Source of the DNA: an uncultured Halanaerobiales bacterium
GTDB taxonomy: Bacteria > Bacillota > Halanaerobiia > Halanaerobiales > M55B127
DNA: 51,875 nucleotides
Direction of reading: 5' to 3'
Assembly: GCA_964642575.1 (NCBI GenBank)
Contig: CAZXRH010000001.1
Span: 1 to 51,875, forward strand
The notes under the pieces are model-generated. The model saw only the letters and a program-made list of their open reading frames with translations, ran no database searches and was not told the DNA's origin. Positions 27,231 to 50,261 of this stretch are shown here, piece after piece (the first letter of the stretch is position 1; every line of letters begins with the position of its first letter). The translations under genes and the position numbers were made by a program.

Positions 27231-27242
27231 GTCAAAGGAGCG

Positions 27243-33651: not shown

Positions 33652-33798
33652 TTACCTGATAAAAAAGTCAAAGGGGTATGAATATTCTTCTTTTGTACAG
33701 AGACCTTTTTCTCGTTTATAATCTGGACACTTCTCTTTTTCTTTGCCATACGCTTCGGCTGTTGTCATAAAAGGACTGTAATATTCTCTATCTTTCAT
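33652..33798 (-). CDS. small ORF-1, 48 aa, Cys-containing basic protein of unknown function (paralog of 44063..44209)
   Basis: Below the ORF-track size cutoff. The minus strand reads AAGGAGGG-ttact-ATG. Translation: MKDREYYSPFMTTAEAYGKEKEKCPDYKREKGLCTKEEYSYPFDFFIR. A second copy of identical length lies 10 kb away. Confidence 0.6.
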   Translation of the reverse strand: MKDREYYSPFMTTAEAYGKEKEKCPDYKREKGLCTKEEYSYPFDFFIR

Positions 33799-34009: not shown

Positions 34010-34062
34010 TTGACAAATATTATTTGTTTTGATAATATTTAATTGTATAGACAACTAGTTGT
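34010..34062 (+). promoter_or_regulatory. sigma-A promoter plus operator for the GntR gene
   Basis: TTGACA (34010-15), 17 nt, TAATAT (34033-38) with an upstream TG (extended -10). Directly downstream lie GTATAGAC (34045-52, the GT-N-TA-N-AC core) and the perfect 12-bp palindrome ACAACTAGTTGT (34051-62). Confidence 0.65.
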
Positions 34063-34077
34063 GTAGGGGTGAAACAG

Positions 34078-34830
34078 ATGGAAAAAATTTTGAACAGTAT
34101 TAATATTAACAAGGAATCGGTTATTCCAATTTATCATCAGATTAAAGAACAATTACAAAATTTAATTGATAGGGGTATTATTGAAAATGGAGATCGCATT
34201 CCTTCCGAAAATGAACTAAGCTCACATTTTGACATTTCCAGAATGACAGCTCGTAATGCAGTGGAAGAACTGGTCAAACAAGGGATTGTTAAAAGAGAAA
34301 GAGGTAAAGGATCAATAGTTTTTCAACCAAAAATAGACCAATCTTTAATGAAAATTCAGAGTTTTACTAAAGCAATGAATGAAAAAGGATATACTATAAG
34401 AGCTGATTTATTAGACTTTGAAGTTGGAACAAGTAGTACAGAAATACAAAAACGGCTTAAATTAGAAGATAATGATAAGATAATAAGGTTATCCCGCATA
34501 CGTTGTATCGAAAATACTCCAGTTGGACTTCAATATTCTTATTTACCTTTTAAATTAACTGAACCACTTATCCAACACAAAAACAAATTAGAAAACACTT
34601 CTTTATATACCTTATTAAGAGAGTATTGTTCGATTAACCCTACTAAAACTCATGAGACCTTAGAAATTAAAAAGGCAACTGCTAAACAAAATAAACTTTT
34701 AAATATACCTCTCAATGAACCCTTGTTTTATGTCGAAGCGCTGGCAGAATGTGAAAAAGGACCAATGGAATATGTAGAATCATATTATCGATCAGATGTA
34801 TTTAAGTTCCATATTAAATCCGAATTATAA
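34078..34830 (+). CDS. GntR-family transcriptional regulator, HutC subfamily (wHTH + UTRA)
   Basis: Motifs PIYHQIKEQLQNLIDRGIIENGDRIPSENELSSHFDISRMTARNAVEELVKQGIVKRERGKGSIV, with a UTRA-sized C-terminal domain. ATG 34078 lies 6 nt after AGGGGTGA. The ORF-track start is 34069. Confidence 0.88.
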   Translation: MEKILNSININKESVIPIYHQIKEQLQNLIDRGIIENGDRIPSENELSSHFDISRMTARNAVEELVKQGIVKRERGKGSIVFQPKIDQSLMKIQSFTKAMNEKGYTIRADLLDFEVGTSSTEIQKRLKLEDNDKIIRLSRIRCIENTPVGLQYSYLPFKLTEPLIQHKNKLENTSLYTLLREYCSINPTKTHETLEIKKATAKQNKLLNIPLNEPLFYVEALAECEKGPMEYVESYYRSDVFKFHIKSEL

Positions 34831-34908
34831 TTTAAGGGGGTGGTGGCTCAAAAAGATAAGGCAGCTAGTATTTCTAGGTATTAATATAATAAGGAGGAGT
34901 AAATAATA

Positions 34909-36474
34909 ATGAAGAAGTATTCTTTATTAATTTTGGTTTTAGTTTTCACACTAATGCTTTCCACAGGTGTTGTAGCGCAAGAGTATGGCGGAGAATTTAC
35001 AGGCTTTTCATCAACTGATCCAAAGACCTTAGATCCGGCAGCAATTAGCTCCTGGGACCAGGCCGTAATGTGTATGAATGTTTTAGAAGGTTTGGTTAGA
35101 TTAACCCCTAAGGGTATGAGTATTGAACCCGGTATTGCTGAATCCTGGAGTGCCTCAGATGATGGTTTAGTATGGACATTTAACTTAAGAGAAGATGCCT
35201 ATTTCCATAATGGAGAAAATGTTACTGCCCAGGATGTAAAATATAGTTTTGAAAGAGTAATAAATCCTGAAACAAAGTCTCCAAGTGCCTGGATATTTAA
35301 TAAAGTCGTTGGCTATGATGCAATGAGAAATGGCGAAGCAGATAGTGTATCAGGTATCACAGTAGTTGATGATTATACTCTAGAAATAGAATTGGTAGAG
35401 CCTCTTACTCCATTTATTTCTATGTTGGCTGCACCAGGTGCCTCTGTAGTACCAGAATCTGCTGTAGATGAATATGGAGATCAATTTGGACAAAATGTTG
35501 TAAGTGCTGGTCCTTTTAAATTAGAAGAATGGGAGCAAAACTTACAGATTTCTATGACAGCCTTTGAAGATTACTGGGACGGCAGACCTTACTTAGATTC
35601 ATTAAACTTTAAATTTATACATGATGAAAATACAAGAGTAGTAGAACTTTTAACAGGTAACTTAGATTGGGCTTGGGTAACTCCTGCTCATCATAATGCT
35701 TTAACTACAAATGATAAATATAAAGACCACATTGGAAGAGTAAATACATTACACGCTGCTTACTTTATTATCAATATGGAAAGAGAACCGTTTGGTAGTA
35801 ATGAGAAACTACGCAAAGCAATGAGTTATGCCCTTGATACTCAAGCAGTTATTGATTCACTACAAGGCAGAGCAGATCCAGCTGTTGGTTTCTTCCCACC
35901 AGGATTTATGGGACAAAATGAGGATGCTCCAGCATATAAACATAATGTAGAAAGAGCGAAAGAATTAATGGCAGAGGCAGGCTATCCTGATGGTATGGAT
36001 GAAACATATACCTTAGTTAGTCTACCTTGGGAAAATCTAATTAACATATTATCTATTTACCAACAAAACCTCAAAGAAATTGGTATTAATATTGAATTGA
36101 ATCCAGTTCAATTTGGACAGTATACTTCAATTATTCAAGAAGGTGACTTTGACCTAGCATATGGATACAAAGTACCTGATTATGCAGATGCTGATGGATT
36201 TGCATATCCACTCCTATATTCTGAAGCAAGTGGAAATGCAGCAAATTATTCCAACCCTGAAGTGGATGAATTGATTGAAGAAGGTAGACAAGCAACCTCT
36301 GAAGAAGCAAGAACAGAAATTTATGAAGAAATCACATCCATTTTACAAGAAGAACTTCCATATATAACAACAACTCATAATATTTGGGTTGATGTAACAG
36401 ATCCAAGTGTTAGAAATTGGCAGCCAAGTGCTATGGACATTCATATGTTCCATAAAGTATGGATGGAACAGTAA
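34909..36474 (+). CDS. ABC transporter substrate-binding protein, family 5 (ligand unknown)
   Basis: Signal peptide MKKYSLLILVLVFTLMLSTGVVAQ. 521 aa, family-5 pattern. AAGGAGGAG RBS. Confidence 0.85.
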   Translation: MKKYSLLILVLVFTLMLSTGVVAQEYGGEFTGFSSTDPKTLDPAAISSWDQAVMCMNVLEGLVRLTPKGMSIEPGIAESWSASDDGLVWTFNLREDAYFHNGENVTAQDVKYSFERVINPETKSPSAWIFNKVVGYDAMRNGEADSVSGITVVDDYTLEIELVEPLTPFISMLAAPGASVVPESAVDEYGDQFGQNVVSAGPFKLEEWEQNLQISMTAFEDYWDGRPYLDSLNFKFIHDENTRVVELLTGNLDWAWVTPAHHNALTTNDKYKDHIGRVNTLHAAYFIINMEREPFGSNEKLRKAMSYALDTQAVIDSLQGRADPAVGFFPPGFMGQNEDAPAYKHNVERAKELMAEAGYPDGMDETYTLVSLPWENLINILSIYQQNLKEIGINIELNPVQFGQYTSIIQEGDFDLAYGYKVPDYADADGFAYPLLYSEASGNAANYSNPEVDELIEEGRQATSEEARTEIYEEITSILQEELPYITTTHNIWVDVTDPSVRNWQPSAMDIHMFHKVWMEQ

Positions 36475-36483
36475 GTTAAATTA

Positions 36484-36513
36484 ACCGGGTATGGGTCCCA
36501 TACCCGGTTTTTT
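36484..36513 (+). terminator. strong hairpin attenuator/terminator after the SBP gene
   Basis: ACCGGGTATGG-gtc-CCATACCCGGT followed by TTTTT. Confidence 0.7.
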
Positions 36514-36537
36514 AAAAAATGTTAAGGTAGCTAGGGG

Positions 36538-37476
36538 ATGATAAAGTTGTTTTCATACATAATTAAAAGACTGTTTTCACTAATTCCTATTATAATTGGA
36601 CTATCTATATTAATATTTGCCTTTTTATATCTAATTCCCGGTGATGTAGCCAGAATGATAGCGGGACCATCTGCTACTGATGAAGTGGTTAATAGTATTA
36701 GAATGGAAATGGGACTCAATCGGCCTTTATACATACAATATTTTGATTTTATTACTGATTTCCTTACCGGTGATTTTGGTAAATCTTATCAATCGGGTAA
36801 TTTGATTAAAAATGAGATACCACAGGTATTTATTAGAACCCTACAGCTTGCTATTACAGTTCAAATAATATCATTTTTTGTAGGGGGAGTTCTTGGAATA
36901 ATTTCAGCTATTTGGCGAAAAACTATTTGGGACCGAATAATTATGGCAATTTCAGTTTCGGGGTTATCCTTACCCTTATTTTGGTCTGCTTTAGTTATAC
37001 AATTGATCTTTAGTATTTATTTAGGTGTTTTACCTCCTTCCGGTTATGAAAGTGGTTTTGATCAGTTTATAATATTACCTGCGTTAACTTTAATGCTGCC
37101 TAACAGTGGTATGTTAGCGCGTGTTACTAGATCTGCAATTATAGATGTTATGAACTTTGATTATGTGAGAACTGCTAGGGCAAAAGGATTAAATAATTTT
37201 TGGGTAGTGACCAAACATATAGTTCGTAATGCTTTGATTCCGATGATAACTATGACCGGTACTAACTTGAGTCGCATGATGGGTGGAGTTATTATGATTG
37301 AAATCATATTTACCTGGCCGGGCATGGGTAAATATGTTTACGATGCTTTACTTTCAAAAGATTTACCTGCTTTGCAGACAGCCACAATGTTGATAGCTAT
37401 ATTGGTAATTCTGATAAATCTTTTAGTAGATTTATCCTATGCATTAATTGATCCCCGTATTAAATATGAAGAGTAG
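36538..37476 (+). CDS. ABC transporter permease (DppB/OppB-like)
   Basis: SYIIKRL N-terminus and DPRI C-terminus, multi-TM. The start may be TTG 36547, which is better spaced from GGGGA. Confidence 0.85.
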   Translation: MIKLFSYIIKRLFSLIPIIIGLSILIFAFLYLIPGDVARMIAGPSATDEVVNSIRMEMGLNRPLYIQYFDFITDFLTGDFGKSYQSGNLIKNEIPQVFIRTLQLAITVQIISFFVGGVLGIISAIWRKTIWDRIIMAISVSGLSLPLFWSALVIQLIFSIYLGVLPPSGYESGFDQFIILPALTLMLPNSGMLARVTRSAIIDVMNFDYVRTARAKGLNNFWVVTKHIVRNALIPMITMTGTNLSRMMGGVIMIEIIFTWPGMGKYVYDALLSKDLPALQTATMLIAILVILINLLVDLSYALIDPRIKYEE

Positions 37477-37490
37477 AGGAGGAAATCATC

Positions 37491-38345
37491 TTGAATGCCT
37501 TTTTAAATTTTTTCAAAAAAGAACCACTTGCCTTTTTGGCCTTAATAGTGGTTGTATTATATATACTTATTGCAATTTTTGCTCCTTTTATTGCTACCCA
37601 TGATCCCTTTGAAGTTAAAACCAGTATGGAAGTTGAGGGTGAAAAAGTTTATGCTCCCTATGCTCCCGGTGCCCGACATTGGTTTGGAACAGACCAGTTA
37701 GGGAGAGACCTTTTCAGTCGAATTGTTTATGGGATCCGGATTTCTATTTTTGTAGGTATTGTAGCCCGGGGTTTAAGTATGGTTGTGGGTGTACTGATTG
37801 GCTTATTTGCAGGTTTTTATGGAGGGGCACTTGATAATATTGTCATGCGGATAACAGATGTTTTTATTTCAATTCCAGCCATCTTATTGGCCATGATTGT
37901 TACTTTAATCTTAAGTCCCAGCTTAACTTCTGTTATAATAGCAATTGTAGTAGTAGGTTGGCCGAAAGTGGCTAGATTGGTCCGTGGTCAGGTCATGAGC
38001 ATTACTACCAATGATTATATAGAAGCCACAGAGGCTTTAGGGGCGAACAATTTAAGAATTATTTTTAAACATGTTTTGCCAAACTGTATTGGAATTATCA
38101 TAGTATCTTTCTCAATGGGGATTCCGGGTGCAGTTATGTATGAAGCCGGACTTTCTTTCTTTGGTCTTGGTATTCAACCTCCTAATCCTAGTTTAGGTTC
38201 AATTATCTCAAATGGGCGAGGTTACTTAATGTTTGCCCCCTGGTATAGTATTATACCTGGAATTGCTTTAGCCTTATTTGTACTTTCAGTCAATGTCTTA
38301 GGAGATACTTTAATAGATTATTATGATCCAACCTATAATAGATAA
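37491..38345 (+). CDS. ABC transporter permease (DppC/OppC-like)
   Basis: Motifs WFGTDQLGRDLFSRIVYGIR and EAGLSFFGLGIQPP. TTG follows GGAGGA. Confidence 0.85.
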   Translation: MNAFLNFFKKEPLAFLALIVVVLYILIAIFAPFIATHDPFEVKTSMEVEGEKVYAPYAPGARHWFGTDQLGRDLFSRIVYGIRISIFVGIVARGLSMVVGVLIGLFAGFYGGALDNIVMRITDVFISIPAILLAMIVTLILSPSLTSVIIAIVVVGWPKVARLVRGQVMSITTNDYIEATEALGANNLRIIFKHVLPNCIGIIIVSFSMGIPGAVMYEAGLSFFGLGIQPPNPSLGSIISNGRGYLMFAPWYSIIPGIALALFVLSVNVLGDTLIDYYDPTYNR

Positions 38346-38363
38346 AATATTGAGGTGATTTTT

Positions 38364-39173
38364 ATGAAATTAGGAGTTTCTACAAGTGTATATTTACATA
38401 ACAACTTATTTAAAGCAGTAGAAAAGATTAATGATTTGAATTTTAAATATATTGAATTATGGGGTGAACCACCTCATTTATGGTTTGATAAACCCGATTT
38501 TCAATATTTGAAGAAATTAAAAAAATACTTAAATGAAAATGATTTAATACCTACTTATCATGGGCCTGCCCATGATATTGATATTACAAGTGTCAATCCG
38601 GGTATTAGACAAGAGTCTTTAAAGCAAAGTAAAGATGCAATACAAATGGCTCAATTTTTAGGTTCAGAGATTATTGTAATTCATATGGGGAGTTATTACC
38701 CTGGTGATAAAAAAGGAACAGAAAATGGTAAAGATAGATTATATAAATCTTTGGAATATCTTCTTCCATATGCTGAAGAAAATAAAGTAACTATTGCTCT
38801 GGAGAATTATCCAGTGGGAGAAAATGCTATCTTTAAAACGCCAGAAGATGTATTGAATATTCTTAGAGATTTTGATTCTGAATATTTAAAGTTAACTTTA
38901 GATATAGGTCATGCAAATTTAACAAATATTTCTCCGATAGAGTATATTAAAATTTTAAAAGATGAAATTGTCCATCTTCATCTTAATGATAATTTTGGGA
39001 AAGAAGATAAGCATTTGGTACCTGGTGAAGGTGAAATAAATTATCCGGCCATATTTAATCAGTTAAAAAAGATTAATTTTGACCAAGTAGGCATCTTTGA
39101 AATTTGGGCACCTGATGAGACTGATCAGGCCCTTATAAACAGTAAAAACTATATTAAATCACTTTTAAGCTAG
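38364..39173 (+). CDS. sugar-phosphate isomerase/epimerase-like TIM-barrel protein (xylose isomerase-like / AP endonuclease 2 fold)
   Basis: MKLGVSTSVY start, then IALENYP, TLDIGHANL and HLHLNDN, the typical metal-ligand pattern. ATG 38364 lies 8 nt after GAGG. Confidence 0.75.
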   Translation: MKLGVSTSVYLHNNLFKAVEKINDLNFKYIELWGEPPHLWFDKPDFQYLKKLKKYLNENDLIPTYHGPAHDIDITSVNPGIRQESLKQSKDAIQMAQFLGSEIIVIHMGSYYPGDKKGTENGKDRLYKSLEYLLPYAEENKVTIALENYPVGENAIFKTPEDVLNILRDFDSEYLKLTLDIGHANLTNISPIEYIKILKDEIVHLHLNDNFGKEDKHLVPGEGEINYPAIFNQLKKINFDQVGIFEIWAPDETDQALINSKNYIKSLLS

Positions 39174-39190
39174 GAGAGGTTGATTAAATA

Positions 39191-39784
39191 ATGGAAAGGA
39201 TAATAGGGATAGATATTGATGGGGTCATAACAGATGAAACAGGCAGATACCAGCGAAATATCTGGCATCATTATTTATGTGAATATTTAGGAAAAGAAGT
39301 TAGTAAACAAGAAGATATCTATAATATATACCATGCTTATGATATTGATAAAAGTGTTATTGATAAATTTTTAAAAAATAATTTAACAAATATATATGAA
39401 GATTTAATTCCTTTAGAGGGTGTACAGGAAGTTTTAAGAGAACTAAAAAAGAAAAGTTTTAAGATTATTTTGATTACAGCTCGTGAAGAAAAATATAGGG
39501 AAGTTACTAAAAGATGGCTTTCTTATTACAATATAAGCTATGATAAATTAGTTCATCGCGAAGATAAAGTACCTTATGCTAAAAAAGAAGGAATAAAATT
39601 ATTTATAGAAGACGATCAAAGCAATGCAGAGGAATTTAAGAGAAATGGTATAGATGTAATTTTATTTGATAAAAAACATAATAGGGATACTGATATAATA
39701 AATGATGCATTTCGTGTAGAAAATTGGAAACAGGCAAAAGATATTATTTATAAACATTTTGACCTTAAAAAGAAATGTGGGTGA
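39191..39784 (+). CDS. HAD-superfamily hydrolase, 5'(3')-deoxyribonucleotidase-like
   Basis: Motifs IGIDIDGVITD (DxDG), ILITAR and LFIEDD. 197 aa. Confidence 0.65.
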   Translation: MERIIGIDIDGVITDETGRYQRNIWHHYLCEYLGKEVSKQEDIYNIYHAYDIDKSVIDKFLKNNLTNIYEDLIPLEGVQEVLRELKKKSFKIILITAREEKYREVTKRWLSYYNISYDKLVHREDKVPYAKKEGIKLFIEDDQSNAEEFKRNGIDVILFDKKHNRDTDIINDAFRVENWKQAKDIIYKHFDLKKKCG

Positions 39785-39788
39785 TTAT

Positions 39789-41159
39789 ATGGATAAGTAT
39801 AAAGGAGATTTTGATGAGCTAATAGATAAATGGGAACTAAAAGAAGAAAATTTGTGGATAGATTATCAGGTTTTAGGCCCGATGTTTGCTTCTTTAAGAA
39901 TGTTTCTAAGTATGGAAAATGTACTGCCAGTTATCGTAGGTTCTAAAGGCTGTTTAAATCACCTGCGCTTTACAATCATAGCCTGGGGGGAAGAAGACTT
40001 TCATCTGGGTAAAAAGCCGGTTACACTGCTTGAATATGACCAACAGGATATAGTTACAGGAGACTACAGTATAACTGATACCTGGTATCAGAATATGAAA
40101 AAGTTAGCAAAACAAGAAAATACAGAAATGATTGTTCTTTTACCCACAGATCCTATAAATATTTCTGGGGTAAATTTAGACCCGATTGCTGATGATATCG
40201 AACAAGAAATTGGTATTAACACAACCTATATACCCACCTCAGCTATATCAGGCGCTAATCAGTTTGAAGGTTATCAGGCGGCCCTTGAAGCATTATACAA
40301 ACCATTTTTAGAACAAGAATATGAGAAAAAAGATACAGTAAATTTAGTGGGTTGGATGTGGCCGTCACGTAAAAGAGAACACGAGATCGGAGCCTGTATT
40401 GAGATGCTTAAACAGATTGATATTGAAGTACAATCTGTTATCACTGGTGGTAGTTCAGTTAAAGATATTGAAGATAGTATGCAAGCAAAAGCTAATGCAA
40501 TGGTTTGTTCTGCAGTGGCTGGAGACTTGTTTTATAAATTAGAAGATAAAGGAATAAAACTGGCTGCAAAAAGATCACCATATGGTAATGAAGGAACTTT
40601 TGAATGGCTAAGCCATATTGCAAAAGCTTTAGGTAAAGATAAAACAGAAAAAATACGTAGATTGGAGAATCTATATAAGGATGATTTTGAAGAAATCAAA
40701 GAAACCTTAAAAGGGAAAAAAGTATTTGTAAGTGGTGGTCCAGGCCGGTTAATTGGACTACTTCATACTCTAAGTGATTATGAAGTTGACATACAATCAG
40801 CTGCCTTATTTTGGCCCCACCCTTGGTCACAGGAAGATTTACAGCATATGAAAGACAAGCACGGTATAAACATTAAAAATATAATAGTCTCACCTGGTTT
40901 AGATGATTTAGAAGAAGTTGCACAAAATCATGAGATTGATTTATGGTTAGGTGGATACCAGGAACAGCATGTGGCCAAAAAGTATGAGATACCTTTTGTA
41001 CCAATTACAGTCTATACTTCACCTCATGTTGGTTTTGAGGGAGTAGTTAATCTAGGTAATAAATTGAAACTGGCTTTAGAAGGTTATGACTTTACCGAAA
41101 ATATATTGAAAGCAAAGGAGATACAGCCATGTATTTATCGTCTAAACGAGAAAGAATAG
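39789..41159 (+). CDS. nitrogenase component-1-type oxidoreductase, alpha (NifD/NifE)-like subunit
   Basis: By-eye family pattern: PVIVGSKGCLNH (compare HGPxGC), KANAMVCSAVAGDLF and SPHVGFEGVVNLGNKL. ATG 39789 follows GGGTGA. ORF-track ATG 39759 would overlap the HAD gene. Confidence 0.7.
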   Translation: MDKYKGDFDELIDKWELKEENLWIDYQVLGPMFASLRMFLSMENVLPVIVGSKGCLNHLRFTIIAWGEEDFHLGKKPVTLLEYDQQDIVTGDYSITDTWYQNMKKLAKQENTEMIVLLPTDPINISGVNLDPIADDIEQEIGINTTYIPTSAISGANQFEGYQAALEALYKPFLEQEYEKKDTVNLVGWMWPSRKREHEIGACIEMLKQIDIEVQSVITGGSSVKDIEDSMQAKANAMVCSAVAGDLFYKLEDKGIKLAAKRSPYGNEGTFEWLSHIAKALGKDKTEKIRRLENLYKDDFEEIKETLKGKKVFVSGGPGRLIGLLHTLSDYEVDIQSAALFWPHPWSQEDLQHMKDKHGINIKNIIVSPGLDDLEEVAQNHEIDLWLGGYQEQHVAKKYEIPFVPITVYTSPHVGFEGVVNLGNKLKLALEGYDFTENILKAKEIQPCIYRLNEKE

Positions 41160-42313
41160 AACCATTAAAAGGTTGTTCAATGGTGGGCATTATTGAAGGA
41201 TTAATGGGCATAGAAGACGCAAGACCTGTAGTTCATGGTCCAATGAGCTGTTCTTCTGGTCACCGAATGGTGTATTTATTTGCAGATAAAGAGCCCATTT
41301 TACCAACAACAGCTTTAACAGAAGAGGAACTGGTTTTGGGTTCACAAGAAAAACTTAAAGCTGCTTTAAAAAAAGCCTATGATCTTTATGAACCAAAATA
41401 TATTAGTATAATCATAACCTGTGCGATTAGTTTATCAGGGGAAGAATATAATAATATAATAAAAGAATTTGAAAGAGAACATGATTGTAAAGTATCTGTT
41501 TTAGATGGCAGTGGATTATACGGTGAAGAAGTTGATGGTTTTAACCAATTATACGAAGATTTTTGGGAAAGATTTAGTATTTCAAATAATCATTCACAGC
41601 TTGTTAGTTTGGATGGGATGGCCCTAAGTGATGTAAATGCAAAAGGAAATTATAATGTAATCATAAATTTATTACAAAAGTATTTCAAAGTAGAAATAGG
41701 TCCTTCAATATTTTTAGATTTTAATATAAAAGAAGACCTTGACATTTATAAAAAGTCTGAAAAAATAAAAATCGGACACCTTTGGAATAATTATGAAATT
41801 GAGGATAATAGACCAGCCCCTTATGGAATAGAGGGTACCTATCAATGGTTAAAATGGTTTAAAAATAGATTTGATAAAAGAACAAGTGAAAACCTAAAAG
41901 ATGATTATGAAAATTATAAGGAACAGCTTAATAAGCTATTAGATGAAAATGATTTAAAAGATTTAAAAATAGTAATCGAAGGCGATTCCTGGACTGCGCT
42001 GGGATTGGCTAACTTCTTAAAATATGAGATAGGCTGTAAGGTAATGTTGAGCACTGATAATTATGGATTTAAATATAATAAAGAAAATATACAACTAGAA
42101 GATATTTATGATGATATGGGTGGTTATGAACTCTTTACTAAAGCAAAAGAATTCAAACCAGATATTGTATTTGGTTCATCATATATTCGATGTAAAAAAC
42201 AGTGGGATATCATTCCTTTTACTCAACCTATCTACCATTTATATGATAATGATATTGATTTAATGGGATATGAAGGAGCTTTTAATTTAGTAGACATTTT
42301 GTCTGAGATCTAA
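41129..42313 (+). CDS. nitrogenase component-1-type oxidoreductase, beta (NifK/NifN)-like subunit
   Basis: EPLKGCSMVG, VVHGPMSCSSGH and SIIITCAISLSGEE reproduce the three-Cys motif order of NifK/NifN. AAGGAG lies 8 nt upstream. It overlaps the D-like gene by 31 nt. Confidence 0.7.
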   Translation: MYLSSKRERIEPLKGCSMVGIIEGLMGIEDARPVVHGPMSCSSGHRMVYLFADKEPILPTTALTEEELVLGSQEKLKAALKKAYDLYEPKYISIIITCAISLSGEEYNNIIKEFEREHDCKVSVLDGSGLYGEEVDGFNQLYEDFWERFSISNNHSQLVSLDGMALSDVNAKGNYNVIINLLQKYFKVEIGPSIFLDFNIKEDLDIYKKSEKIKIGHLWNNYEIEDNRPAPYGIEGTYQWLKWFKNRFDKRTSENLKDDYENYKEQLNKLLDENDLKDLKIVIEGDSWTALGLANFLKYEIGCKVMLSTDNYGFKYNKENIQLEDIYDDMGGYELFTKAKEFKPDIVFGSSYIRCKKQWDIIPFTQPIYHLYDNDIDLMGYEGAFNLVDILSEI

Positions 42314-42356
42314 ATAATATATTAACAGAACTTAAAAGCACTATTGGAGGAATACT

Positions 42357-43169
42357 ATGAAAAAGATAGCGATGTATGGAAAAGGTGGAATAGGTAAATC
42401 AACTATAGCTGTAAATCTTGCCTTAACCTTTGCCAAAAAAGATTATAATATTGGTTTAATTGGTTGTGATCCCAAAGGAGATACCTGTAGGTTATTAGCT
42501 CCCCAAAGATTACCAACTATTTTAGATAATTATAGTGAAATCAAAAAGGATATTAATAATATCAAAGATCTAATATATGTTTATGAAGAAAGTATCTCAT
42601 GTATAGAAGTGGGTGGACCTAAACCCGGGGTAGGTTGTGCTGGTAAAGGGATTGTCTTAGGTCTTGATCTATTAGAAGAGTATGATTTCTATCAGGATAA
42701 AGATATTATCATTTACGATGTTTTAGGTGATGTAGTTTGTGGAGGTTTTGCCTCTCCAGTTTCAAAAGGTTATGCCGAAGAAGTGTATATAGTTACTTCC
42801 GGAGAACAGGCTTCCCTCTTTGCAGCAAATAATATTATCAAAGGCATGAGTCAAATTGGTGGTAATATTCAAGGATTGATCTATAACAGTAAAAACATTG
42901 ATAAAGAATTAGAGATAGTCAACGAATTTTCTAAAAGAATTCAAATACCTATTATTGGAAAAATAAAACATTCAAAAAGAATTCCTTTATTGGAGTTACA
43001 AAAAAAAGCAGTTGTGGATGTATATTCAGATGGGAAAGAAGCCAAGCAGTTTGCAGAACTAGCAGACCATATTATAAACAAAGATATTGATGTACAGACT
43101 GATAATATTGAAGATGAAGAAGTTCATGAAATAATAAAACAAATAAAGGGTGATAAATATGTCTATTAA
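42357..43169 (+). CDS. NifH/BchL/CfbC-family ATP-dependent reductase (Fe-protein-like)
   Basis: P-loop [10 protein letters not shown] and switch [25 protein letters not shown] and [14 protein letters not shown] carry the two [4Fe-4S] ligand Cys motifs. GGAGG RBS. Confidence 0.88.
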
Positions 43170-43989
43170 TCATCCCTGTTATACAGGTGGCTGTTATCAG
43201 AATATTGTTCGCATCCATTTACCGGTTGCAGATGTCTGTAACTTAGGTTGTGGTTTTTGTGAAAGATCAATTGAAAACAAAGATGGTATCAAATCAAGTA
43301 ACAATGCAGTCTCCCCCCAGACTGCATTATCTTGGCTAAAAAAACTCATTGAGGAAGATAAAGAGGATATAAAGGTTGTGGGTATTGCTGGACCTGGTGA
43401 ACCATTATTTAGTGAAAACACTTTTGAAACTTTGAAATTAGTTAAAGAAGCATATCCAGAAATTTCAACCTGTCTCTGTACCAATGGTGTAAACCTTGAT
43501 AAGGCTGTAGATAGAATTACTGGCCTGTTAGATTATCTGACAGTAACCATTAATGCCTATACTCCAGAAACAGCCAAAAAAATATATAAGTTTGTTGTTT
43601 TCAATGGTGAATATGAATATGGGCTAGACTCTTTTCAAAAGATGCTTGACAAGAAATGGGAAGGAGTCAAAAAGGCTCTAGCTTCTAATAGCTTTAATGC
43701 TCTAAAAATAAACAGCATTTTTATTCCTGATGTTAATGATGAAGAAATTGTGGATATAGCAAAAAAAGCAGGTGAGCTCGGTATTGATGAATTAAACATC
43801 AAAACTTTGATTCCTAAAGCATACTTTAAAGACCATAAAAAATTCAAAAAAGAGAATCTTAAAAAAGTAAGGGAAGAAGCAGGTAAATATATTACGGTAT
43901 TTAAAGAATGCAAAAACTGCAGCTATGATGCAGTAGGAGTACCTGGTAAAGATAGAAGATTAAATTTAATGTTTAAAGATGAAATATAA
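43159..43989 (+). CDS. NifB-like radical-SAM protein (core domain only)
   Basis: [25 protein letters not shown] (CX3CX2C), [14 protein letters not shown] and [12 protein letters not shown] follow the NifB core pattern. No NifX-like extension. ATG 43159 follows AAGGGTGA and overlaps the nifH-like stop. The ORF-track start is GTG 43150. Confidence 0.75.
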
Positions 43990-44006
43990 GATATTGTTAA
44001 ATATAT

Positions 44007-44035
44007 TTAGCCCCTTTGTAAAAAAAAGGGGCTAA
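44007..44035. terminator. hairpin between the convergent NifB-like gene and small ORF-2 (probable bidirectional terminator)
   Basis: TTAGCCCCTTT / AAAGGGGCTAA stem with an A-rich loop. The U-tail is poor on both strands. Confidence 0.5.
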
Positions 44036-44062
44036 AAATGTATTAATATCCAATTTTAATTA

Positions 44063-44209
44063 TTAATCTCTCATAAAAAAGTTCAATTTATAAAAAATGT
44101 TATTCGATTTACAATTTTGTCTTGATTGTTTGTTTTGATTTCTTTTTCCACAGCGGTTATAAGAATCAGCATTTGTCATATAAGGATAGATTGTATTTCT
44201 TTTTTTCAT
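44063..44209 (-). CDS. small ORF-2, 48 aa, Cys-containing basic protein of unknown function (paralog of 33652..33798)
   Basis: Below the ORF-track cutoff. The minus strand reads AGGAGTGG-tcatt-ATG. Translation: MKKRNTIYPYMTNADSYNRCGKRNQNKQSRQNCKSNNIFYKLNFFMRD. It shares MK.R....P[FY]MT.A[ED].Y and a [DN]FF[IM]R tail with small ORF-1. Confidence 0.6.
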   Translation of the reverse strand: MKKRNTIYPYMTNADSYNRCGKRNQNKQSRQNCKSNNIFYKLNFFMRD

Positions 44210-44701: not shown

Positions 44702-44992
44702 ATGGTTAAAGTTTTTTGGAACGATAAGGAAATTGCAAGTTCTGATAAAACGAAAGTAGTTGAAGGTAATCACTATTTTCCACCCGAAAGTGTTAAAATG
44801 GAATACTTTAAAAAAAGTGATCACCATACAACCTGTCCTTGGAAAGGTGAGGCATATTATTATCACTTAAAAGATGGTGAACAACAAGAAAATAATGCCG
44901 CCTGGTATTATCCTGAACCAAAAGAAGAAGCAGAAAAAATAAGAGACCATGTAGCATTTTATACCAACAAAGTAGATGTTAAAGAACAATAA
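44702..44992 (+). CDS. DUF427 domain protein
   Basis: 96 aa. VVEGNHYFPPESV...TTCPWKGEAYYYHL matches the DUF427 pattern. AAAGGAG RBS. Confidence 0.75.
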   Translation: MVKVFWNDKEIASSDKTKVVEGNHYFPPESVKMEYFKKSDHHTTCPWKGEAYYYHLKDGEQQENNAAWYYPEPKEEAEKIRDHVAFYTNKVDVKEQ

Positions 44993-45026: not shown

Positions 45027-45917
45027 ATGAAGAAAAAGTTTATTTTGATTACACTCATAGCTTTAATGACAATATCTTTAGTGGGTACCGCTTTTGCCCA
45101 AGAAGGTAGTTTTAAGATACTGTATACTAATAAAATAGAAGATGAAAGTCAATTAAAGAAAAATGACGGTCTTGAATTTAATCAAATTAAAAAACGAATT
45201 GAAAAATATCAAAACAACTCAAATCTATTAATAGTTGATATAGGAGATACTCTTTATGACCAAACTATTATAAATAAAAATAGCGGCAAAGATGCTATTC
45301 AAAACATGAATGAAATAGGTTATGTTGGGATGGTTTTAGGAAATGATGAATTTAATTTTGGACAGACCCGAATAAAAGAGCTGGAAAAAATGGCAAAATT
45401 CAATTTCCTAGCAGCTAATCTTCAACCACAACTTGTCGATTCATATATAATAAAGGAAGTAGATGGAATTAAAGTAGGTATTTTCGGTTTAGTAACACCC
45501 ACTACTATTAAAAAAACACATGCAGACAATGTCAAAGGTTTAACCTTTAGGGACCCTTATCAGACAGCTGCAGAAATGGTCGCTGAATTAAGTCAGCAGA
45601 CTGATATTATAGTTGCTTTATCACATTTAGGAACTGATAAAGATAATGAATACAATAGCCAGACGTTGGCCAAAAGTGTTTCAGGTATTGATATTATAAT
45701 TGATGGACAAAGCCGGGCAGCTATTGAAAAAAGTATATTAATAGATGGAACCTTAATAGCGCAAGCCGGTCAATATGATAGGAATATAGGAATGATAGAA
45801 GTAACCTGTGCAGATGGAGAAACTACTGCCCGGGCGGCTTTAATAACTGAAGAACAAAAAGCTGAAGTTAAAGATAATGAGGAAGAGTCTGAAAATAAGA
45901 GATTAGCACCCACTTGA
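45027..45917 (+). CDS. secreted metallophosphoesterase-domain protein (5'-nucleotidase N-terminal-like) with degenerate active-site motifs
   Basis: Signal peptide. Motifs VDIGDTLYD, LGNDEFNFG and ALSHLGTDKD line up with the calcineurin-like phosphoesterase motifs, but several ligands are replaced. No C-terminal 5'-nucleotidase domain. Confidence 0.65.
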   Translation: MKKKFILITLIALMTISLVGTAFAQEGSFKILYTNKIEDESQLKKNDGLEFNQIKKRIEKYQNNSNLLIVDIGDTLYDQTIINKNSGKDAIQNMNEIGYVGMVLGNDEFNFGQTRIKELEKMAKFNFLAANLQPQLVDSYIIKEVDGIKVGIFGLVTPTTIKKTHADNVKGLTFRDPYQTAAEMVAELSQQTDIIVALSHLGTDKDNEYNSQTLAKSVSGIDIIIDGQSRAAIEKSILIDGTLIAQAGQYDRNIGMIEVTCADGETTARAALITEEQKAEVKDNEEESENKRLAPT

Positions 45918-46113: not shown

Positions 46114-47736
46114 TTATTTGATTTTTCTATACATCTTGAGGTAGTAATTTTCCAGCATTTTACGAGCAGAAAATTCTTCATAGGTACTTTCAATACTGTT
46201 ATTCATCATTTCTTCCCATTGTGGCTTGTTATCATAATAGGTGGGTAATACATCATTAAAGAGTACTCTATAAAGTGATTCCCTATCATGTTGATCCTGA
46301 TTTTCGCCTACATAACCGTCCCCAAATTGCCAACCGTTCATTCCGTGTTGACAGGCTTCTGGCCACCAGCCATCAAGAATACTTAAATTTAAAACTCCAT
46401 TCATGGCTGCTTTCATACCTGAAGTACCACTTGCTTCTTTAGGTCGGCGTGGATTGTTTAACCAGACATCTACCCCTCTAGTCATCATCATGGCAATTTC
46501 CATATTGTAATCTTCTAAAAAGACTACACTATTAGGATATTTTTCTGTCATTTTTACAATTCTTTGTACAAGGTCTTTACCCTTATCATCAAGTGGATGT
46601 GCCTTACCAGAGAAGATGATTTGGATTCTATTATCTTTTAAGTAAGGTTCTATAATATCCATTTTACTGAAAATGAGGTCAGCCCTTTTATAGGGGGCAG
46701 CTCTTCTGGCAAAGCCAATCAGTAATTTATTAGGATCTAGTTCAGTCTTTGTTTTATCTTTTACATAGTTAATTAATTCCGATTTTAATTGTTGGTGAAT
46801 CGGCATTAAATCATTACCATCTTCAAAGGCTTCATAAATTCTAGAATCTACCCATGTCTTTCGATGTACTCCGTTTGTAATAGCTTTAATGGGGGACTTG
46901 TCATCTACATGGTCCCACATTTTACGAGCGGTTACTCCATGTAGTTGAGCAACTCCATTTGAAATTTTAGCTAATCTTAATCCCGCTACAGTATTACTAA
47001 AGGGATCATTACCTATTCTTTTCATCTGTTCTTCGGTTAATCCATTATATGCACCAATGTCTTTTAACACATGGTGTTCATGTTCTTCATTACCCTTTTT
47101 AACAGGGGTATGAGTGGTAAAGACAGTTTGATTCCTAACTGCTTTAAGGGCTTGTTCAAAATTTAATCCTTCTTCCATCTTTTCTTGTATCATTTCTGTA
47201 CCAGCAAACACGGCATGACCTTCATTATAATGATAGACATCAATGTCTAAATCAAGAGCACGGATCGCTCTGATACCTCCGATTCCTAAGGCGATTTCCT
47301 GAGCAATTCTTTCTTCTTGACCCCAGGCATAAAGTCTTTTGGTTATCCAGTCATATTTACCGTTTTCTTCTAGATTAGAATCTAAAAGGTATAGGGTATT
47401 CATATAGTCTGTTTCCATTTTCCAAACTTTTAATTTTATATCATTTCCTTTAACTTCTACATTTACTGTAACTCCTGTGTCTTCTAAATGATCATAAATA
47501 TAATCATTAGTAGGATATTTATCATATGGTCTACCATTTTCATCGATTAACTGTTTTGTATAGCCTTCCAACCATAACATTCCTATTCCGGTTATTGGGT
47601 AATCATATTCATGAGCTGCTTTTAAAATATCACCGGCTAAGATTCCCAAACCACCAGCATAGATGCGAAAGTTATTATTTATGCCGTACTCCATACAGAA
47701 GTAGGCAACATTTTTCCTTTTTTCTTTTGCTATCAA
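46114..47736 (-). CDS. alpha-glucan (maltodextrin/glycogen) phosphorylase, short GT35 type
   Basis: 540 aa. PKEASGTSGMKAAMNG carries the PLP-lysine motif. The N-terminus YFCMEYG..GGLGILAGD is typical of the family. Confidence 0.9.
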   Translation of the reverse strand: MIAKEKRKNVAYFCMEYGINNNFRIYAGGLGILAGDILKAAHEYDYPITGIGMLWLEGYTKQLIDENGRPYDKYPTNDYIYDHLEDTGVTVNVEVKGNDIKLKVWKMETDYMNTLYLLDSNLEENGKYDWITKRLYAWGQEERIAQEIALGIGGIRAIRALDLDIDVYHYNEGHAVFAGTEMIQEKMEEGLNFEQALKAVRNQTVFTTHTPVKKGNEEHEHHVLKDIGAYNGLTEEQMKRIGNDPFSNTVAGLRLAKISNGVAQLHGVTARKMWDHVDDKSPIKAITNGVHRKTWVDSRIYEAFEDGNDLMPIHQQLKSELINYVKDKTKTELDPNKLLIGFARRAAPYKRADLIFSKMDIIEPYLKDNRIQIIFSGKAHPLDDKGKDLVQRIVKMTEKYPNSVVFLEDYNMEIAMMMTRGVDVWLNNPRRPKEASGTSGMKAAMNGVLNLSILDGWWPEACQHGMNGWQFGDGYVGENQDQHDRESLYRVLFNDVLPTYYDNKPQWEEMMNNSIESTYEEFSARKMLENYYLKMYRKIK

Positions 47737-47782
47737 ATCAAATCACACTCCCAAGTAAATTTATCCTAATTTTTAATTAAAA

Positions 47783-49273
47783 TTATCTTTTCCAGATTCT
47801 TAGAAATCTATCCAGCAGCCTGGAATCGTTTTTTGCATCAGGTTCAGTAAAATATTCTGGAATTTCTAACTTTTCTTTTTCTTCTTGTTCGGTACTTAAT
47901 ATATTCTGCATAAATTCTAAATATGATTTAGCAGTTTGTTCCCAGGTATATTGATTCATCACCCTTTTTTTACCTTTTTTATGGTAATTATCCCAAATTG
48001 CTTTATCAGATAGTACTTCTAATAGACCCCGGGCAATATCTTCCGGCTCTTCTGGATCAACTAATACACCGAATTCCCCATCATTCATAATCTCAACCGG
48101 TCCACCGTTTTCAGTCACTACCGCTGGTAGACCAGAAGCCATTGCTTCGACAGGTGCTAATCCAAATGGTTCATAAAATGAAGTTAAGGCAAATACAGAA
48201 TTTTTGCTAGCAAAGTAAGCATAAGTTTCAGCTAATTGCTTTTGGCTGTTTAAAGAAAACATGGTAACTTTATTAGAACAATTATTATTATAAATAATCT
48301 TCATGACCTGGTCAAGAATATTTTTTTCTTCTTTGTCAGCACTTGAATAATCTTCAAAAGGATTTTCGATTCCTCTTAAGGCTATAGCGAGATTTGCATG
48401 TTTTTGCAGTTTTTTATTTTCAGCAAAGGCTTTTACTAAGCCAAGATGATTTTTCTTTTGATCTAAACGACTTGAAGAGATTATTAAAGGTAAAGATTGT
48501 CTGTCTTCATCAATATCCCGCTCAATATATCCTTCTAATTTATCTTGTATTTGTTCTGTATACTCACCGTTAAAGATATCTGTATTGACACCCGGTGGAA
48601 TAACTTTAAATTTGTCATCATCTTCTGTATCAACAGCTTGTCGATATAAATTATGCGAATACTGTTCATATCTTTCTTGTGAGGTACTAACAATAATGCC
48701 ATCAGCATGACTCATCGCAAGTCTTTCAGCAATTATTCTTCTATGAAAATTAAACTTGGTATTATAGTCTGTAAAATTAACCTTATTTACATCAAGTTTA
48801 TCCATCTTTTGAGCACCCAGGGAATGTCCTGTAAAGGTAAAGGGAATTCCTTTTTTCTCTTTTAATAAAACGCCACTTAGCCCCCCATCCCCATAATGAG
48901 TGGTAACAAAGTCCGGCATACTGCCTTCATCTTCATAAAAATTGATAATACTCTCTACATAATCATCTATATAAGGCCAGAGGGCTTCTTTTTTAAGAAA
49001 TTCATCACCGCCAAAAGGAATTCTGACAATTCTAACCTTATCACTTTCGGGATATTTTTCAATTGGATCTGAAAATTCAGGCCAATCATCATCTTTAATT
49101 TGTCGGGTGATAATATCAACATTAATACCCAACTTTGCAAGTGCTAGTGAGACTTCCTTAACATAAACTAACTGACCACCAAAATCAGGATGTTCTGTCC
49201 AATAACTATCTTTTGGATCAAAGTTTCCTTGTGGATTTAAAAAAGCTACACGTTGTATCTCAGATATATCCAT
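47783..49273 (-). CDS. sucrose-phosphate synthase-like GT4 glycosyltransferase (no SPP domain)
   Basis: 496 aa. Motifs GGQLVYVKE and TSFYEPFGLAPVEAMASGLP (EX7E). Size and neighbourhood with a fructokinase resemble the bacterial SPS described in Halothermothrix orenii. Confidence 0.8.
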   Translation of the reverse strand: MDISEIQRVAFLNPQGNFDPKDSYWTEHPDFGGQLVYVKEVSLALAKLGINVDIITRQIKDDDWPEFSDPIEKYPESDKVRIVRIPFGGDEFLKKEALWPYIDDYVESIINFYEDEGSMPDFVTTHYGDGGLSGVLLKEKKGIPFTFTGHSLGAQKMDKLDVNKVNFTDYNTKFNFHRRIIAERLAMSHADGIIVSTSQERYEQYSHNLYRQAVDTEDDDKFKVIPPGVNTDIFNGEYTEQIQDKLEGYIERDIDEDRQSLPLIISSSRLDQKKNHLGLVKAFAENKKLQKHANLAIALRGIENPFEDYSSADKEEKNILDQVMKIIYNNNCSNKVTMFSLNSQKQLAETYAYFASKNSVFALTSFYEPFGLAPVEAMASGLPAVVTENGGPVEIMNDGEFGVLVDPEEPEDIARGLLEVLSDKAIWDNYHKKGKKRVMNQYTWEQTAKSYLEFMQNILSTEQEEKEKLEIPEYFTEPDAKNDSRLLDRFLRIWKR

Positions 49274-49274
49274 T

Positions 49275-50261
49275 CTATAATGCCTCCTGCTCTTTAATAA
49301 ATTTTAAAAGATAATCTTTTTCGGGCACCTGTGAAAGTGCACCAACACCTCGAATCTTGAAAGCTGCAGTTGCATTACCTAACTTAACAGCTTCTCTGAT
49401 ACTCATTTTGTCCAATATTCCGTTCATAAAACCAGACCAAAAAGAGTCTCCCGCTCCCGTTACATCTACAACTTTTTTAGAATAAACTTTTAGTCTGAAT
49501 TTCTCTATTCCATCAGATACTAAAACACCGTCTTTTCCCATGGTTAATATAACAATGTTTGCACCGACTTGCAAATATTTTTCAATATAATTTTCTGGTG
49601 TATCAGGGCCAAAAAGATATTCGGCATCATCTAATGAGGGTTTAATAAAATCAGCAGTTTGGATTATTTTTTTAACCAATTCGGCACCATCATCTTCCTT
49701 AGGCCAGAGGATAGGACGGTAACAGGGGTCATATGCTAATAATGTATTATCATCTCCGGCAATCATATCTAATACCGCAAGGGCTGTATCCCGAGATGGT
49801 TTTTGAGAAAGAATAAAAGTAGTGAGGTATACAATCTTAGTCTCCTTCACTAATTCTTTTACTTTATCACTAAATTGAATATGCTTATCAGCATCCCGAT
49901 AGGCAAGCCAGGCTGGGGTTCCACTAGTTTTATTCACAAAGACGAGAGGTGTTCTGCGCTTTTTATCAATTTGAATACCTTCAGTATTAATATTTTCTCT
50001 CTGTAACACATTTAATAGAAATTCACCGAAATCATCATCACCGATTCTGGTTAACATTCTGGTTTTAGCTCCCAAACGCTGAGAGTTAACAGCTACATTG
50101 GCAGCTGAACCACCGAAATAGCGGGAAAATTTTTCTGCCTCTGAAAGTAAAACATTTTCTTCTTCAGTGATGAGATCTACAAGAAGTTCTCCAAAGCTTA
50201 AGATATCAACCTTGGAAGTAGTAAATGTATATTTAGAATCCAGTAATGACATAGTTTTCAC
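49275..50261 (-). CDS. PfkB-family sugar kinase (fructokinase-like)
   Basis: Motifs GGSAANVA and VDVTGAGDSFWSG. 1 nt lies between its stop and the SPS start. Confidence 0.85.
   Translation of the reverse strand: MKTMSLLDSKYTFTTSKVDILSFGELLVDLITEEENVLLSEAEKFSRYFGGSAANVAVNSQRLGAKTRMLTRIGDDDFGEFLLNVLQRENINTEGIQIDKKRRTPLVFVNKTSGTPAWLAYRDADKHIQFSDKVKELVKETKIVYLTTFILSQKPSRDTALAVLDMIAGDDNTLLAYDPCYRPILWPKEDDGAELVKKIIQTADFIKPSLDDAEYLFGPDTPENYIEKYLQVGANIVILTMGKDGVLVSDGIEKFRLKVYSKKVVDVTGAGDSFWSGFMNGILDKMSIREAVKLGNATAAFKIRGVGALSQVPEKDYLLKFIKEQEAL

Follow-up and report, generated by a model that had tools for sequence, protein, structure and literature searches.

Nitrogenase-like (NFL) enzymes that do not fix N2 include two characterised C-S lyases, MAR (MarBHDK, Group IV-C) of Rhodospirillum rubrum and ISR (IsrBHDK, Group IV-F) of Rhodobacter capsulatus, each of which has a radical-SAM partner that is a NifB homologue in MAR only (PMC13474568). 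A 2026 review of the NFL enzymes counted the remaining Group IV clades, which are functionally unknown, among the greatest challenges of the field and noted that genomic context had been of little help so far (PMC13474568). Here, we analysed a 51,875-nt stretch of contig CAZXRH010000001.1 (assembly GCA_964642575.1) from an uncultured Halanaerobiales bacterium, hereafter the window, in which a nitrogenase-like cassette (nflD, nflK, nflH and a nifB-like gene) closes a ten-gene block that opens with a GntR-family regulator and the genes of an ATP-binding cassette (ABC) importer. The Nfl clade is an exception to the review's experience because its context is rich and conserved, and we found no description of either the clade or its context in the literature searched. 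The Nfl system works like Mar and Isr, as a NifB/H/D/K reductase for nutrient use under anoxia, and falls outside Mar, Isr, Group VI and true nitrogenase. The enzyme probably acts on an imported organic compound. On balance, we lean towards a fuller reading, in which the ten genes form one operon, induced by its substrate and catabolic or salvaging in role, for the anaerobic, ATP-driven reduction of an imported N-linked sugar- or nucleoside-type compound, in place of oxygenases.

The cassette, all on the + strand, comprises nflD (39789–41159, in an open reading frame (ORF) that opens at 39759), encoding an alpha-like subunit of 456 aa (PF00148, E = 4.7e-55), nflK (41129–42313, overlapping nflD by 31 nt), encoding a beta-like subunit (PF00148, E = 4.7e-41), and nflH (42357–43169), encoding an ATP-dependent Fe-protein-type reductase (PF00142, E = 7e-75); that is, a NifH-type ATPase with a co-encoded PF00148 pair, as expected of a two-component NFL enzyme, which would reduce its substrate by ATP-dependent electron transfer. 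In NflH, the Walker A motif (GKGGIGKS) was intact, as were both cluster cysteines, C94 (GVGCAGKG) and C128 (GDVVCGGF), which correspond to NifH C97 and C132. The fourth gene (43150–43989, likely ATG at 43159) encodes a stand-alone NifB-type radical-SAM enzyme without a NifX-like domain. Its product matched archaeal NifB from end to end (7bi7, E = 2e-53 over residues 6–268) and kept the HPC, CxxxCxxC and CxxCxxDA motifs, one Cys just after the radical-SAM motif being missing; its score of 192 on the NCBIfam nifB model lay under the cut-off of 344 because that model includes the NifX domain.

NflD was placed by its PDB matches and a search of representative proteins, and was compared with Mar, Isr, Group VI and true nitrogenase. 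The PDB matches of NflD and NflK were to NifD, MarD, NifE and NifK, and the top matches of the NflD profile were remote (archaeal NifD 9spz, E = 4.7e-30; MarD, E = 3e-25; and NifEN). The candidate 9spz was rejected as an NFL protein, since it is the true NifD of Methanocaldococcus infernus. When the NflD profile was run against 1.84 billion representative proteins, about four full-length clusters scored above 470 bits and all else scored 165 bits or less, a gap indicating that the clade is small and sharply bounded; it was present in 21 loci among 185,579 species-representative genomes.

The metal ligands set the clade apart. Invariant residues of NflD were C55 (at the position of NifD C88), D121 (C154), C203, C240 (C275, or MarD Cys270), H58, H344 and H394, with C203, H344 and a GGYQEQH motif belonging to the clade alone. 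In a profile alignment to true NifD, the C62 position was occupied by Met, Ser or Asn and the H442 position by Val, Thr or Tyr; MarD His429 aligned to NflD Tyr390, four residues before the invariant His394, which is the His of GGYQEQH. Because all of the next-nearest relatives examined (23 of 23) keep Cys at positions 62, 88, 154 and 275, loss of the Cys62 and Cys154 equivalents is a hallmark of the clade. NflK was invariant at C41 (NifK C70), C98 (C153) and an extra C16 at the position corresponding to alpha-62, and lacked an equivalent of C95. Of the six P-cluster cysteines, only three were therefore kept (alpha 88, beta 70 and beta 153), and, of the cofactor ligands, the Cys275 equivalent was present and that of His442 absent; on both counts the ligand set is not that of a true nitrogenase. 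From these residues we infer that an interface cluster of the [4Fe-4S] type may sit on the three NflK cysteines and NflD Cys55, with Asp121 nearby, and that a NifB-derived cluster may be bound on Cys240.

Among the closest described systems is Mar, which likewise combines a NifB-type maturase, an Fe protein and a D/K pair without fixing N2, has its MarD Cys270 equivalent preserved in NflD and is an anaerobic answer to a bond cleavage that oxygenases perform in aerobes. However, the resemblance in sequence is remote, NflD does not cluster with MarD (>470 versus ≤165 bits), and MarDK has the full P-cluster, whereas NflD has Met, Ser or Asn for alpha C62 and Asp for C154. Nor do the nfl genes have a sulfur-metabolism context; they are joined instead to an importer/phosphatase operon under GntR-type control. 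An analogy to Mar with a different accessory set, drawn in the preliminary description of this DNA, thus stands as one of logic and does not extend to membership.

Isr shares with Nfl a reduced set of interface cysteines, its alpha subunit keeping only the equivalent of NifD Cys88, and a functional tie to an ABC importer of the substrate. It differs in that IsrK keeps C70, C95 and C153, whereas NflK keeps C70 and C153 and adds the N-terminal Cys16; in that IsrD has no cofactor Cys, which NflD retains; and in that IsrB is not NifB-like beyond its radical-SAM motif, whereas the Nfl partner is a full-length NifB homologue (PMC13474568). Group VI enzymes (Elusimicrobia type) have neither a NifB partner nor a cofactor Cys (PMC13474568), unlike Nfl with its NifB-like gene and invariant Cys240. 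The Group V enzyme DPOR (BchNB/ChlNB) also has an asymmetric interface cluster with an Asp at a nitrogenase Cys position, but there three Cys come from the alpha-like N subunit and the Asp from B, whereas in Nfl three Cys would come from K, and one Cys and the Asp from D. DPOR, in addition, acts on a tetrapyrrole and lacks both NifB and the cofactor Cys.

The six genes that precede the cassette resemble operons for the uptake and catabolism of fructosamines (frl/fra) and of opines or agrocinopine (acc). With these operons the block shares a GntR regulator of the HutC type, an importer that relies on a binding protein, and an FrlC-like TIM barrel; in the acc system, genes for a phosphodiesterase and a phosphatase come after that of a family-5 binding protein; and orthologues of its binding protein adjoin FrlD-like kinase and FrlB-like SIS genes. 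In contrast to frl, nfl operons have no FrlD-type kinase or FrlB-type SIS deglycase, and their matches to Frl models were all under cut-off. We know of no frl or acc system with a nitrogenase-like enzyme.

Ten consecutive + strand ORFs fill the interval between 34010 and 44036, with genes spanning 34069–43989 (ORF list, Pfam and NCBIfam), as expected from the earlier claim of ten co-directional genes with short or overlapping junctions; its domain labels (GntR/HutC, family-5 importer, TIM barrel, HAD, nitrogenase-like and NifB-like) likewise agreed with Pfam and NCBIfam. Upstream of the cassette, in order, are the regulator (34069–34830, likely ATG at 34078; winged helix-turn-helix PF00392, E = 5.5e-17, and UTRA domain PF07702, E = 4.9e-28), a family-5 (Opp/Dpp/Nik-type) substrate-binding protein (SBP) with a Sec signal peptide (34909–36474; PF00496, E = 7e-99), an OppB/DppB/NikB-type permease (36538–37476; PF00528 and PF19300, BPD_transp_1), an OppC/DppC/NikC-type permease (37491–38345; PF00528 and PF12911, BPD_transp_1), a xylose-isomerase-like TIM barrel (38355–39173; AP_endonuc_2, PF01261, E = 1.4e-47) and a HAD phosphatase of the NT5C, or 5'(3')-deoxyribonucleotidase, type (39191–39784; PF06941, 55.9 bits, above cut-off, with an intact DxDGV motif). 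The nine junctions measured, in gene order, +78, +63, +14, +9, +17, +4, −31, +43 and −11 to −20 nt, the 4-nt gap between the HAD gene and nflD following from an nflD start set at the ATG that fits the 456-aa homologues. The top NCBIfam models of the regulator, NF041547 and PRK11402, were both under cut-off, and the binding protein reached no NCBIfam equivalog cut-off.

A sigma-70-like promoter found by consensus scan (34010–34038, +; TTGACA at 34010, a 17-nt spacer, an upstream TG and TAATAT at 34033) precedes the regulator gene and is followed by a probable GntR/HutC operator, TTGTATAGACAA (34043–34054, +), which overlaps the region of the transcription start, has the core GT-N-TA-N-AC and occurs once within the window. 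Together with the winged helix-turn-helix and UTRA domains, this core assigns the regulator to the HutC subfamily. The same promoter arrangement recurred 5' of the GntR gene in five loci of the Halanaerobiales type (L005, L009, L026, L031 and L033; L numbers denote loci of our collection), and TTGTATA(G/T)ACAA stood right after the −10 box in each, as a perfect palindrome in three of the five, with the remaining spacer diverged. The regulator probably binds TTGTATAGACAA. In a Halanaerobiales metagenome-assembled genome, the GntR gene was split into two ORFs (L026, 4275–5028), maybe through a frameshift or assembly error.

Just 3' of the binding-protein gene lies a stem-loop followed by U6 (36483–36515, +), a partial terminator or attenuator. 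The hairpin itself, which the preliminary description had placed at 36484, proved real (36483–36509, −21.3 kcal/mol, z = −3.6), and 10 of 11 further nfl loci inspected also had a strong hairpin at this junction, its base changes being compensatory among the Halanaerobiales loci and its sequences unrelated elsewhere. A second strong, palindromic hairpin, 17 nt past the nifB-like stop (44006–44036, −22.2 kcal/mol, z = −7.2), probably marks the operon end; a few weaker terminator-like matches within coding sequence were also scored in the terminator scan. The junctions, the single operator and the terminators together suggest co-transcription of all ten genes. An Rfam scan of the whole window at gathering thresholds returned no match and thus gave no riboswitch clue to the ligand.

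The importer was recognised as family 5 by its SBP_bac_5 protein and two BPD_transp_1 permeases, and to that extent its earlier assignment was right; the ATPase genes of a full importer, however, are lacking in the block. No ABC ATPase gene of the oligo_HPY type was present in the ten genes or in any Halanaerobiales-type locus, whereas the clostridial and Anaerolineales versions encode OppD/OppF ATPases. Domain scans of the window revealed a single OppD/OppF-type pair (21310–23294, +; PF00005 and PF08352 in both) and no other ABC ATPase. This pair, ~13 kb upstream of the block and inside one of two further family-5 peptide operons, is a candidate to serve the nfl-linked importer in trans. Sharing of ATPases between importers may be general in this genome, since the window holds three permease pairs and a single OppD/OppF pair. 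A sigma-54 activator heads each of the two peptide-type operons (595–14496 and 14645–28568), which encode M19 dipeptidases and M20 peptidases as well as a C26 peptidase, a racemase and an acetyl-CoA hydrolase/transferase.

The search with NflD gave 67 relatives, and ~45 loci were taken from genome and metagenome collections and by exact-match look-ups, their genes being labelled by seeds from the window and by Pfam and NCBIfam. Hosts were Halanaerobiales, Oscillospiraceae (including cultured Anaerotruncus colihominis, whose type strain DSM 17241 carries the cluster), Erysipelotrichaceae and Anaerolineales. The ten-gene block was found in ~14 Halanaerobiales-type loci at 61–100% NflD identity, in identical order at 75–100%; at 61% (L036), all ten genes were present and the HAD gene alone had moved behind nifB. 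ORFs were intact in more than 10 of the ATPase-less loci at 61–100% identity. Across lineages at 41–57% identity, the nfl genes and an ABC importer remained in one same-strand block, while gene order, regulator and transporter family varied. Clostridial loci (48–57%; two A. colihominis genomes, Oscillospiraceae and Candidatus Pullichristensenella) had the order NPP-type phosphodiesterase (not in all), YhfZ-type (or Crp) regulator, NflD, NflK, NflH, OppD, OppF, family-5 SBP, OppB, OppC, NifB-like and, in some, a YqeG-type HAD. In an Erysipelotrichaceae genome and a related metagenome contig (47–48%), a Bmp/PnrA-type ABC system, a family that includes purine-nucleoside receptors, lay directly 5' of NflDKH-NifB. 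A lineage at 42% had GntR/UTRA, a CUT1 system with a UgpB-like binding protein, SurE, NflD, NflK, NifB, a PHP-type metallohydrolase and a tandem-fused NflH, and Anaerolineales-type loci (41–44%) read SBP5-OppBC-NflDK-(NifB)-NflH-GntR-OppDF.

The importers of nfl loci thus belong to three different ABC families, and because adjacency of nfl genes and importer outlasts changes in order, regulator and transporter family, it indicates functional coupling and not chance. The synteny proposed earlier as a check was accordingly borne out by the shared order in Halanaerobiales and the shared nfl-importer pairing beyond, and the outcome that would have spoken against it, nfl-like cassettes never standing beside such neighbours, was not seen, as ~45 loci keep nflDKH and nifB with an importer.

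Two features of the Nfl proteins varied among the relatives. Tandem NflH-NflH fusions of 584–609 aa, a covalently linked Fe-protein dimer, were encoded in three distant lineages (L006/L007, 14177–15931; L027, 13399–15228; L046, 7253–9031). In a transporter-less lineage (L028, 8512–9975; also L047), the NifB-like protein has a C-terminal NifX-like domain (PF02579), unlike that of the window; its neighbours include a B12-binding radical-SAM enzyme and sugar-nucleotide enzymes.

The enzymes that accompany Nfl have a recurrent nucleoside theme. In the window, the TIM barrel is a candidate sugar epimerase/isomerase or phosphodiesterase by sequence: its top NCBIfam model was fructoselysine 3-epimerase (93.7 bits, under cut-off) and its top PDB match MJ1311 (3wqo, E = 2e-34), on which the literature gave no usable functional clue. 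The TIM barrel stayed with the cluster down to 61% NflD identity (L036), and the HAD phosphatase, whose top PDB match was the Pnkp1 phosphatase domain, occurred in every Halanaerobiales-type locus, the rearranged L036 among them. Across lineages, most loci had a nucleotidase-like phosphatase, of one of three unrelated kinds: the NT5C-type HAD, the YqeG-type HAD-IIIA (111–119 bits; cut-off 89) and SurE (172 bits; cut-off 135). A second hydrolase was frequent, either the TIM barrel, an NPP/PhnA-like protein of the alkaline-phosphatase superfamily or a PHP-type metallohydrolase. Genes of the pyrimidine-nucleoside phosphorylase activity type closed the block in five separate lineages, in two non-homologous forms: uridine phosphorylase in four (303–317 bits; equivalog cut-off 280) and pyrimidine-nucleoside phosphorylase in the fifth (601 bits; cut-off 559). 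They began 4–50 nt past the preceding gene in four of the five. Non-homologous replacement at the block end speaks for a uridine-like nucleoside as the end point of the pathway in those hosts. Two candidates were discarded as evidence: an Anaerolineales upstream TIM barrel with an FGGY kinase, which are ordinary XylA/XylB, and an A. colihominis PNP-family gene 6 kb upstream, which is MtnN on the other strand.

A second line of evidence came from the binding protein, which belongs to a tight orthogroup. Within it, proteins encoded in nfl clusters of different phyla were 47–57% identical to each other, and the two paralogues in the window were 27% identical. Orthologues without nfl genes (52–68% identical, up to 68% to an nfl-linked one) brought the range over nfl and oxygenase clusters together to 47–68%. 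Neighbours of these nfl-free orthologues were an FrlR-like GntR/UTRA regulator, a PfkB sugar kinase, a GlmS/FrlB-like double-SIS protein and up to three PhyH-type dioxygenases, as well as an Amidohydro_2 protein and its partner, a Rieske ferredoxin of 130 aa. The Amidohydro_2 protein matched amidohydrolase-related dinuclear monooxygenases (PDB 8sm7, E = 4e-45), which with Rieske partners carry out O2-dependent C-H hydroxylation and dealkylation (PMC10811679; PMC13154177). In L058, SBP5-OppB-OppC is followed by a TIM barrel 43% identical to that of the window.

In aerobic hosts of the orthologous transporter, it seems to be O2-dependent hydroxylases that act on the same compound. The simplest reading of the shared transporters is that the same kind of imported compound would be met by oxygenases where O2 is available and by a nitrogenase-like enzyme in strict anaerobes, a split that resembles that of Mar and Isr versus the oxygen-dependent organosulfur enzymes. 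Dinuclear oxygenases of the AibH1H2/SfbO type (PMC10811679) hold the place of nfl beside the orthologous transporter in presumably aerobic hosts and perform a C-H hydroxylation leading to dealkylation; they differ in fold and cofactor and depend on O2, and the shared transporter is their one link to nfl. Naming the ligand from characterised oxygenase relatives was considered and rejected, as their native substrate is also unreported. Among these loci, L053, L056 and L057 represent a conserved, apparently undescribed aerobic cluster (GntR/UTRA, PfkB, SBP5-OppBC, Amidohydro_2 with Rieske, double-SIS and several PhyH), whose oxygenase is closest to the orphan D3EI84 (PDB 8sm7).

Under the reading that we favour, the HutC-type regulator would occupy the operator at the promoter when no effector is present and be released by it. 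The family-5 binding protein, made in excess owing to the attenuator hairpin, would then import an organic compound through the two permeases and ATPases encoded elsewhere, and the TIM-barrel enzyme and the nucleotidase-like HAD phosphatase would trim or convert this compound, or convert the product. ATP hydrolysis by NflH would drive low-potential electrons through the interface Fe-S cluster of NflDK to a NifB-made carbide-type cluster on Cys240, where an inert C-N, C-S or C-O bond would, most probably, be reductively cleaved; in gut clostridial clusters, the product would feed a uridine or pyrimidine-nucleoside phosphorylase. As for the compound, an N-linked sugar conjugate is the most probable, with one line of evidence leading to a pyrimidine nucleoside or nucleotide derivative and the other to a ketosamine/opine-like compound, and the choice of any particular substrate class is tentative. 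A thiolated nucleoside substrate, which would mean Mar-like C-S cleavage, is compatible with these data.

A bolder proposal, which we regard as possible though doubtful, is that Nfl would be the first nitrogenase-family enzyme devoted to carbon or nucleoside catabolism and not to N2 fixation, the synthesis of pigments or cofactors, or sulfur assimilation. As a reductive dealkylase driven by ATP, it would split an inert C-N (or C-O) bond of an imported N-substituted sugar/pyrimidine-nucleoside conjugate, by means of a NifB-made carbide cluster and a novel Cys/Asp-ligated interface cluster, as the counterpart, in strict anaerobes, of dealkylation by dinuclear and 2-oxoglutarate oxygenases. RNA turnover, for example, would supply an alkylated uridine as its substrate, and a ketosamine/opine-like compound would be another example. 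Should the favoured reading hold, NifB-type carbide clusters would gain a new kind of reaction and the nitrogenase superfamily a new interface-cluster ligation, and it would show how gut and hypersaline anaerobes degrade a compound that otherwise needs oxygen. The pairing of nfl genes and importer in distant anaerobes is in any case a practical route to the role of an uncharacterised enzyme class, with several handles on function: a binding protein open to ligand screening, a regulator whose operator is defined, the trimming enzymes, downstream nucleoside phosphorylases, an oxygenase sister pathway and a cultured host.

Several observations weigh against the favoured reading. Of the clostridial loci whose sequence continues beyond the end of the operon, half lacked a nucleoside phosphorylase, and the accessory enzymes vary by lineage and may not all act on one substrate. 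The nucleoside and the ketosamine/opine-like lines of context are not obviously those of one compound. The two most distant lineages (37–40%; L028/L047 and L029) have NifB-NflDKH and no transporter within 10 kb. In the window, uptake would depend on a partner encoded outside the block, and the terminator-like hairpin 3' of the binding-protein gene could in principle stop transcription before the nfl genes. Finally, the OppA Asp that serves the peptide amino terminus is kept in Halanaerobiales, Anaerolineales and oxygenase-cluster binding proteins and absent in clostridial ones.

Sulfur assimilation of the Mar/Isr type, in which an organosulfur compound, perhaps a sugar or nucleoside with a thio or methylthio group, would be imported and its C-S bond cleaved by NflHDK for the sulfur, is the best-placed of the alternatives and still unlikely. 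It has on its side the precedent of the two characterised lyases, the co-induction of ISR with a sulfonate ABC transporter (PMC13474568), the same B/H/D/K gene content and the retained equivalent of MarD Cys270. However, neither the window nor the ~45 loci contained sulfur-assimilation genes or sulfur-type regulators, the regulators being of the GntR/HutC, YhfZ and Crp types, and the neighbours were phosphatases and pyrimidine-nucleoside phosphorylases. MarD, moreover, was a remote match (E = 2.6e-13 with a single NflD sequence, 3e-25 with the profile), no better than true archaeal NifD, and the P-cluster ligand set of MarDK is not kept.

The imported compound had earlier been described as organic or a metal chelate; the former part is retained and the latter is disfavoured, because orthologous binding proteins adjoin sugar-kinase, SIS and oxygenase genes. 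This same observation bears on a cofactor route like that of CfbCD or DPOR, in which a Ni/Co chelate or tetrapyrrole-like molecule would be imported and reduced by Nfl for cofactor use. Family-5 proteins do include NikA and CntA, nickel-type models scored nearly as high as OppA, the top NCBIfam model of NflH was CfbC (under cut-off) and the TIM barrel weakly matched the cobamide-remodelling CbiR model. In addition, one freshwater Chloroflexi-type contig has a gene for a URO-D-fold protein between nflK and a 473-aa NifB-like gene (L045, 3420–4577), but this protein matched MtaA/CmuA methyltransferases and not uroporphyrinogen decarboxylase. No tetrapyrrole or metallophore genes were found in the loci, other lineages use UgpB-like or Bmp-type binding proteins, and tetrapyrrole-reducing NFL enzymes have no NifB partner (PMC13474568), all of which makes this route quite improbable.

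That the nfl genes are a unit apart from the transporter/TIM/HAD genes, which they adjoin by chance, might be argued from the terminator-like hairpin 3' of the binding-protein gene and from an ATPase-less transporter that could be a remnant, but the pairing is kept across phyla, rearrangements and three transporter families, the HAD gene and nflD are 4 nt apart, the ATPase-less loci retain intact ORFs and the hairpin itself is conserved in ATPase-less and ATPase-containing versions alike, so that chance is very improbable. A minimal alternative nitrogenase (Nfa-like) or NifEN-like cofactor scaffold for nitrogen fixation, suggested by the joint presence of NifB, H, D-like and K-like genes and by the best NCBIfam model (NifE) and PDB match (true archaeal NifD) of NflD, is hardly credible given three of six P-cluster cysteines, no His442 equivalent, scores far under model cut-offs, no nitrogen-regulatory or other nif genes in the window and a position inside a GntR-controlled uptake operon.

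The flanks of the operon showed further features. Two paralogous 48-aa ORFs, at 33652–33798 (−) and 44063–44209 (−), enclose it, each with its own ribosome-binding site, and share an N-terminal MK.R...P(F/Y)MT.A(E/D).Y and a C-terminal FF(I/M)R. They accompany the cluster at no other locus except L030, from the same genome. Downstream of the operon follow a 96-aa ORF (44702–44992) and a 296-aa ORF without a Pfam match (45027–45917), and the opposite strand carries phosphorylase-like, sucrose-synthase/GT4-like and PfkB genes (46114–50261). The L030 locus is on JGI contig Ga0102934_1007422, which was 100% identical to the window over nflD and the downstream small ORF, indicating that the organism of the window or a very close relative was sampled in that metagenome.

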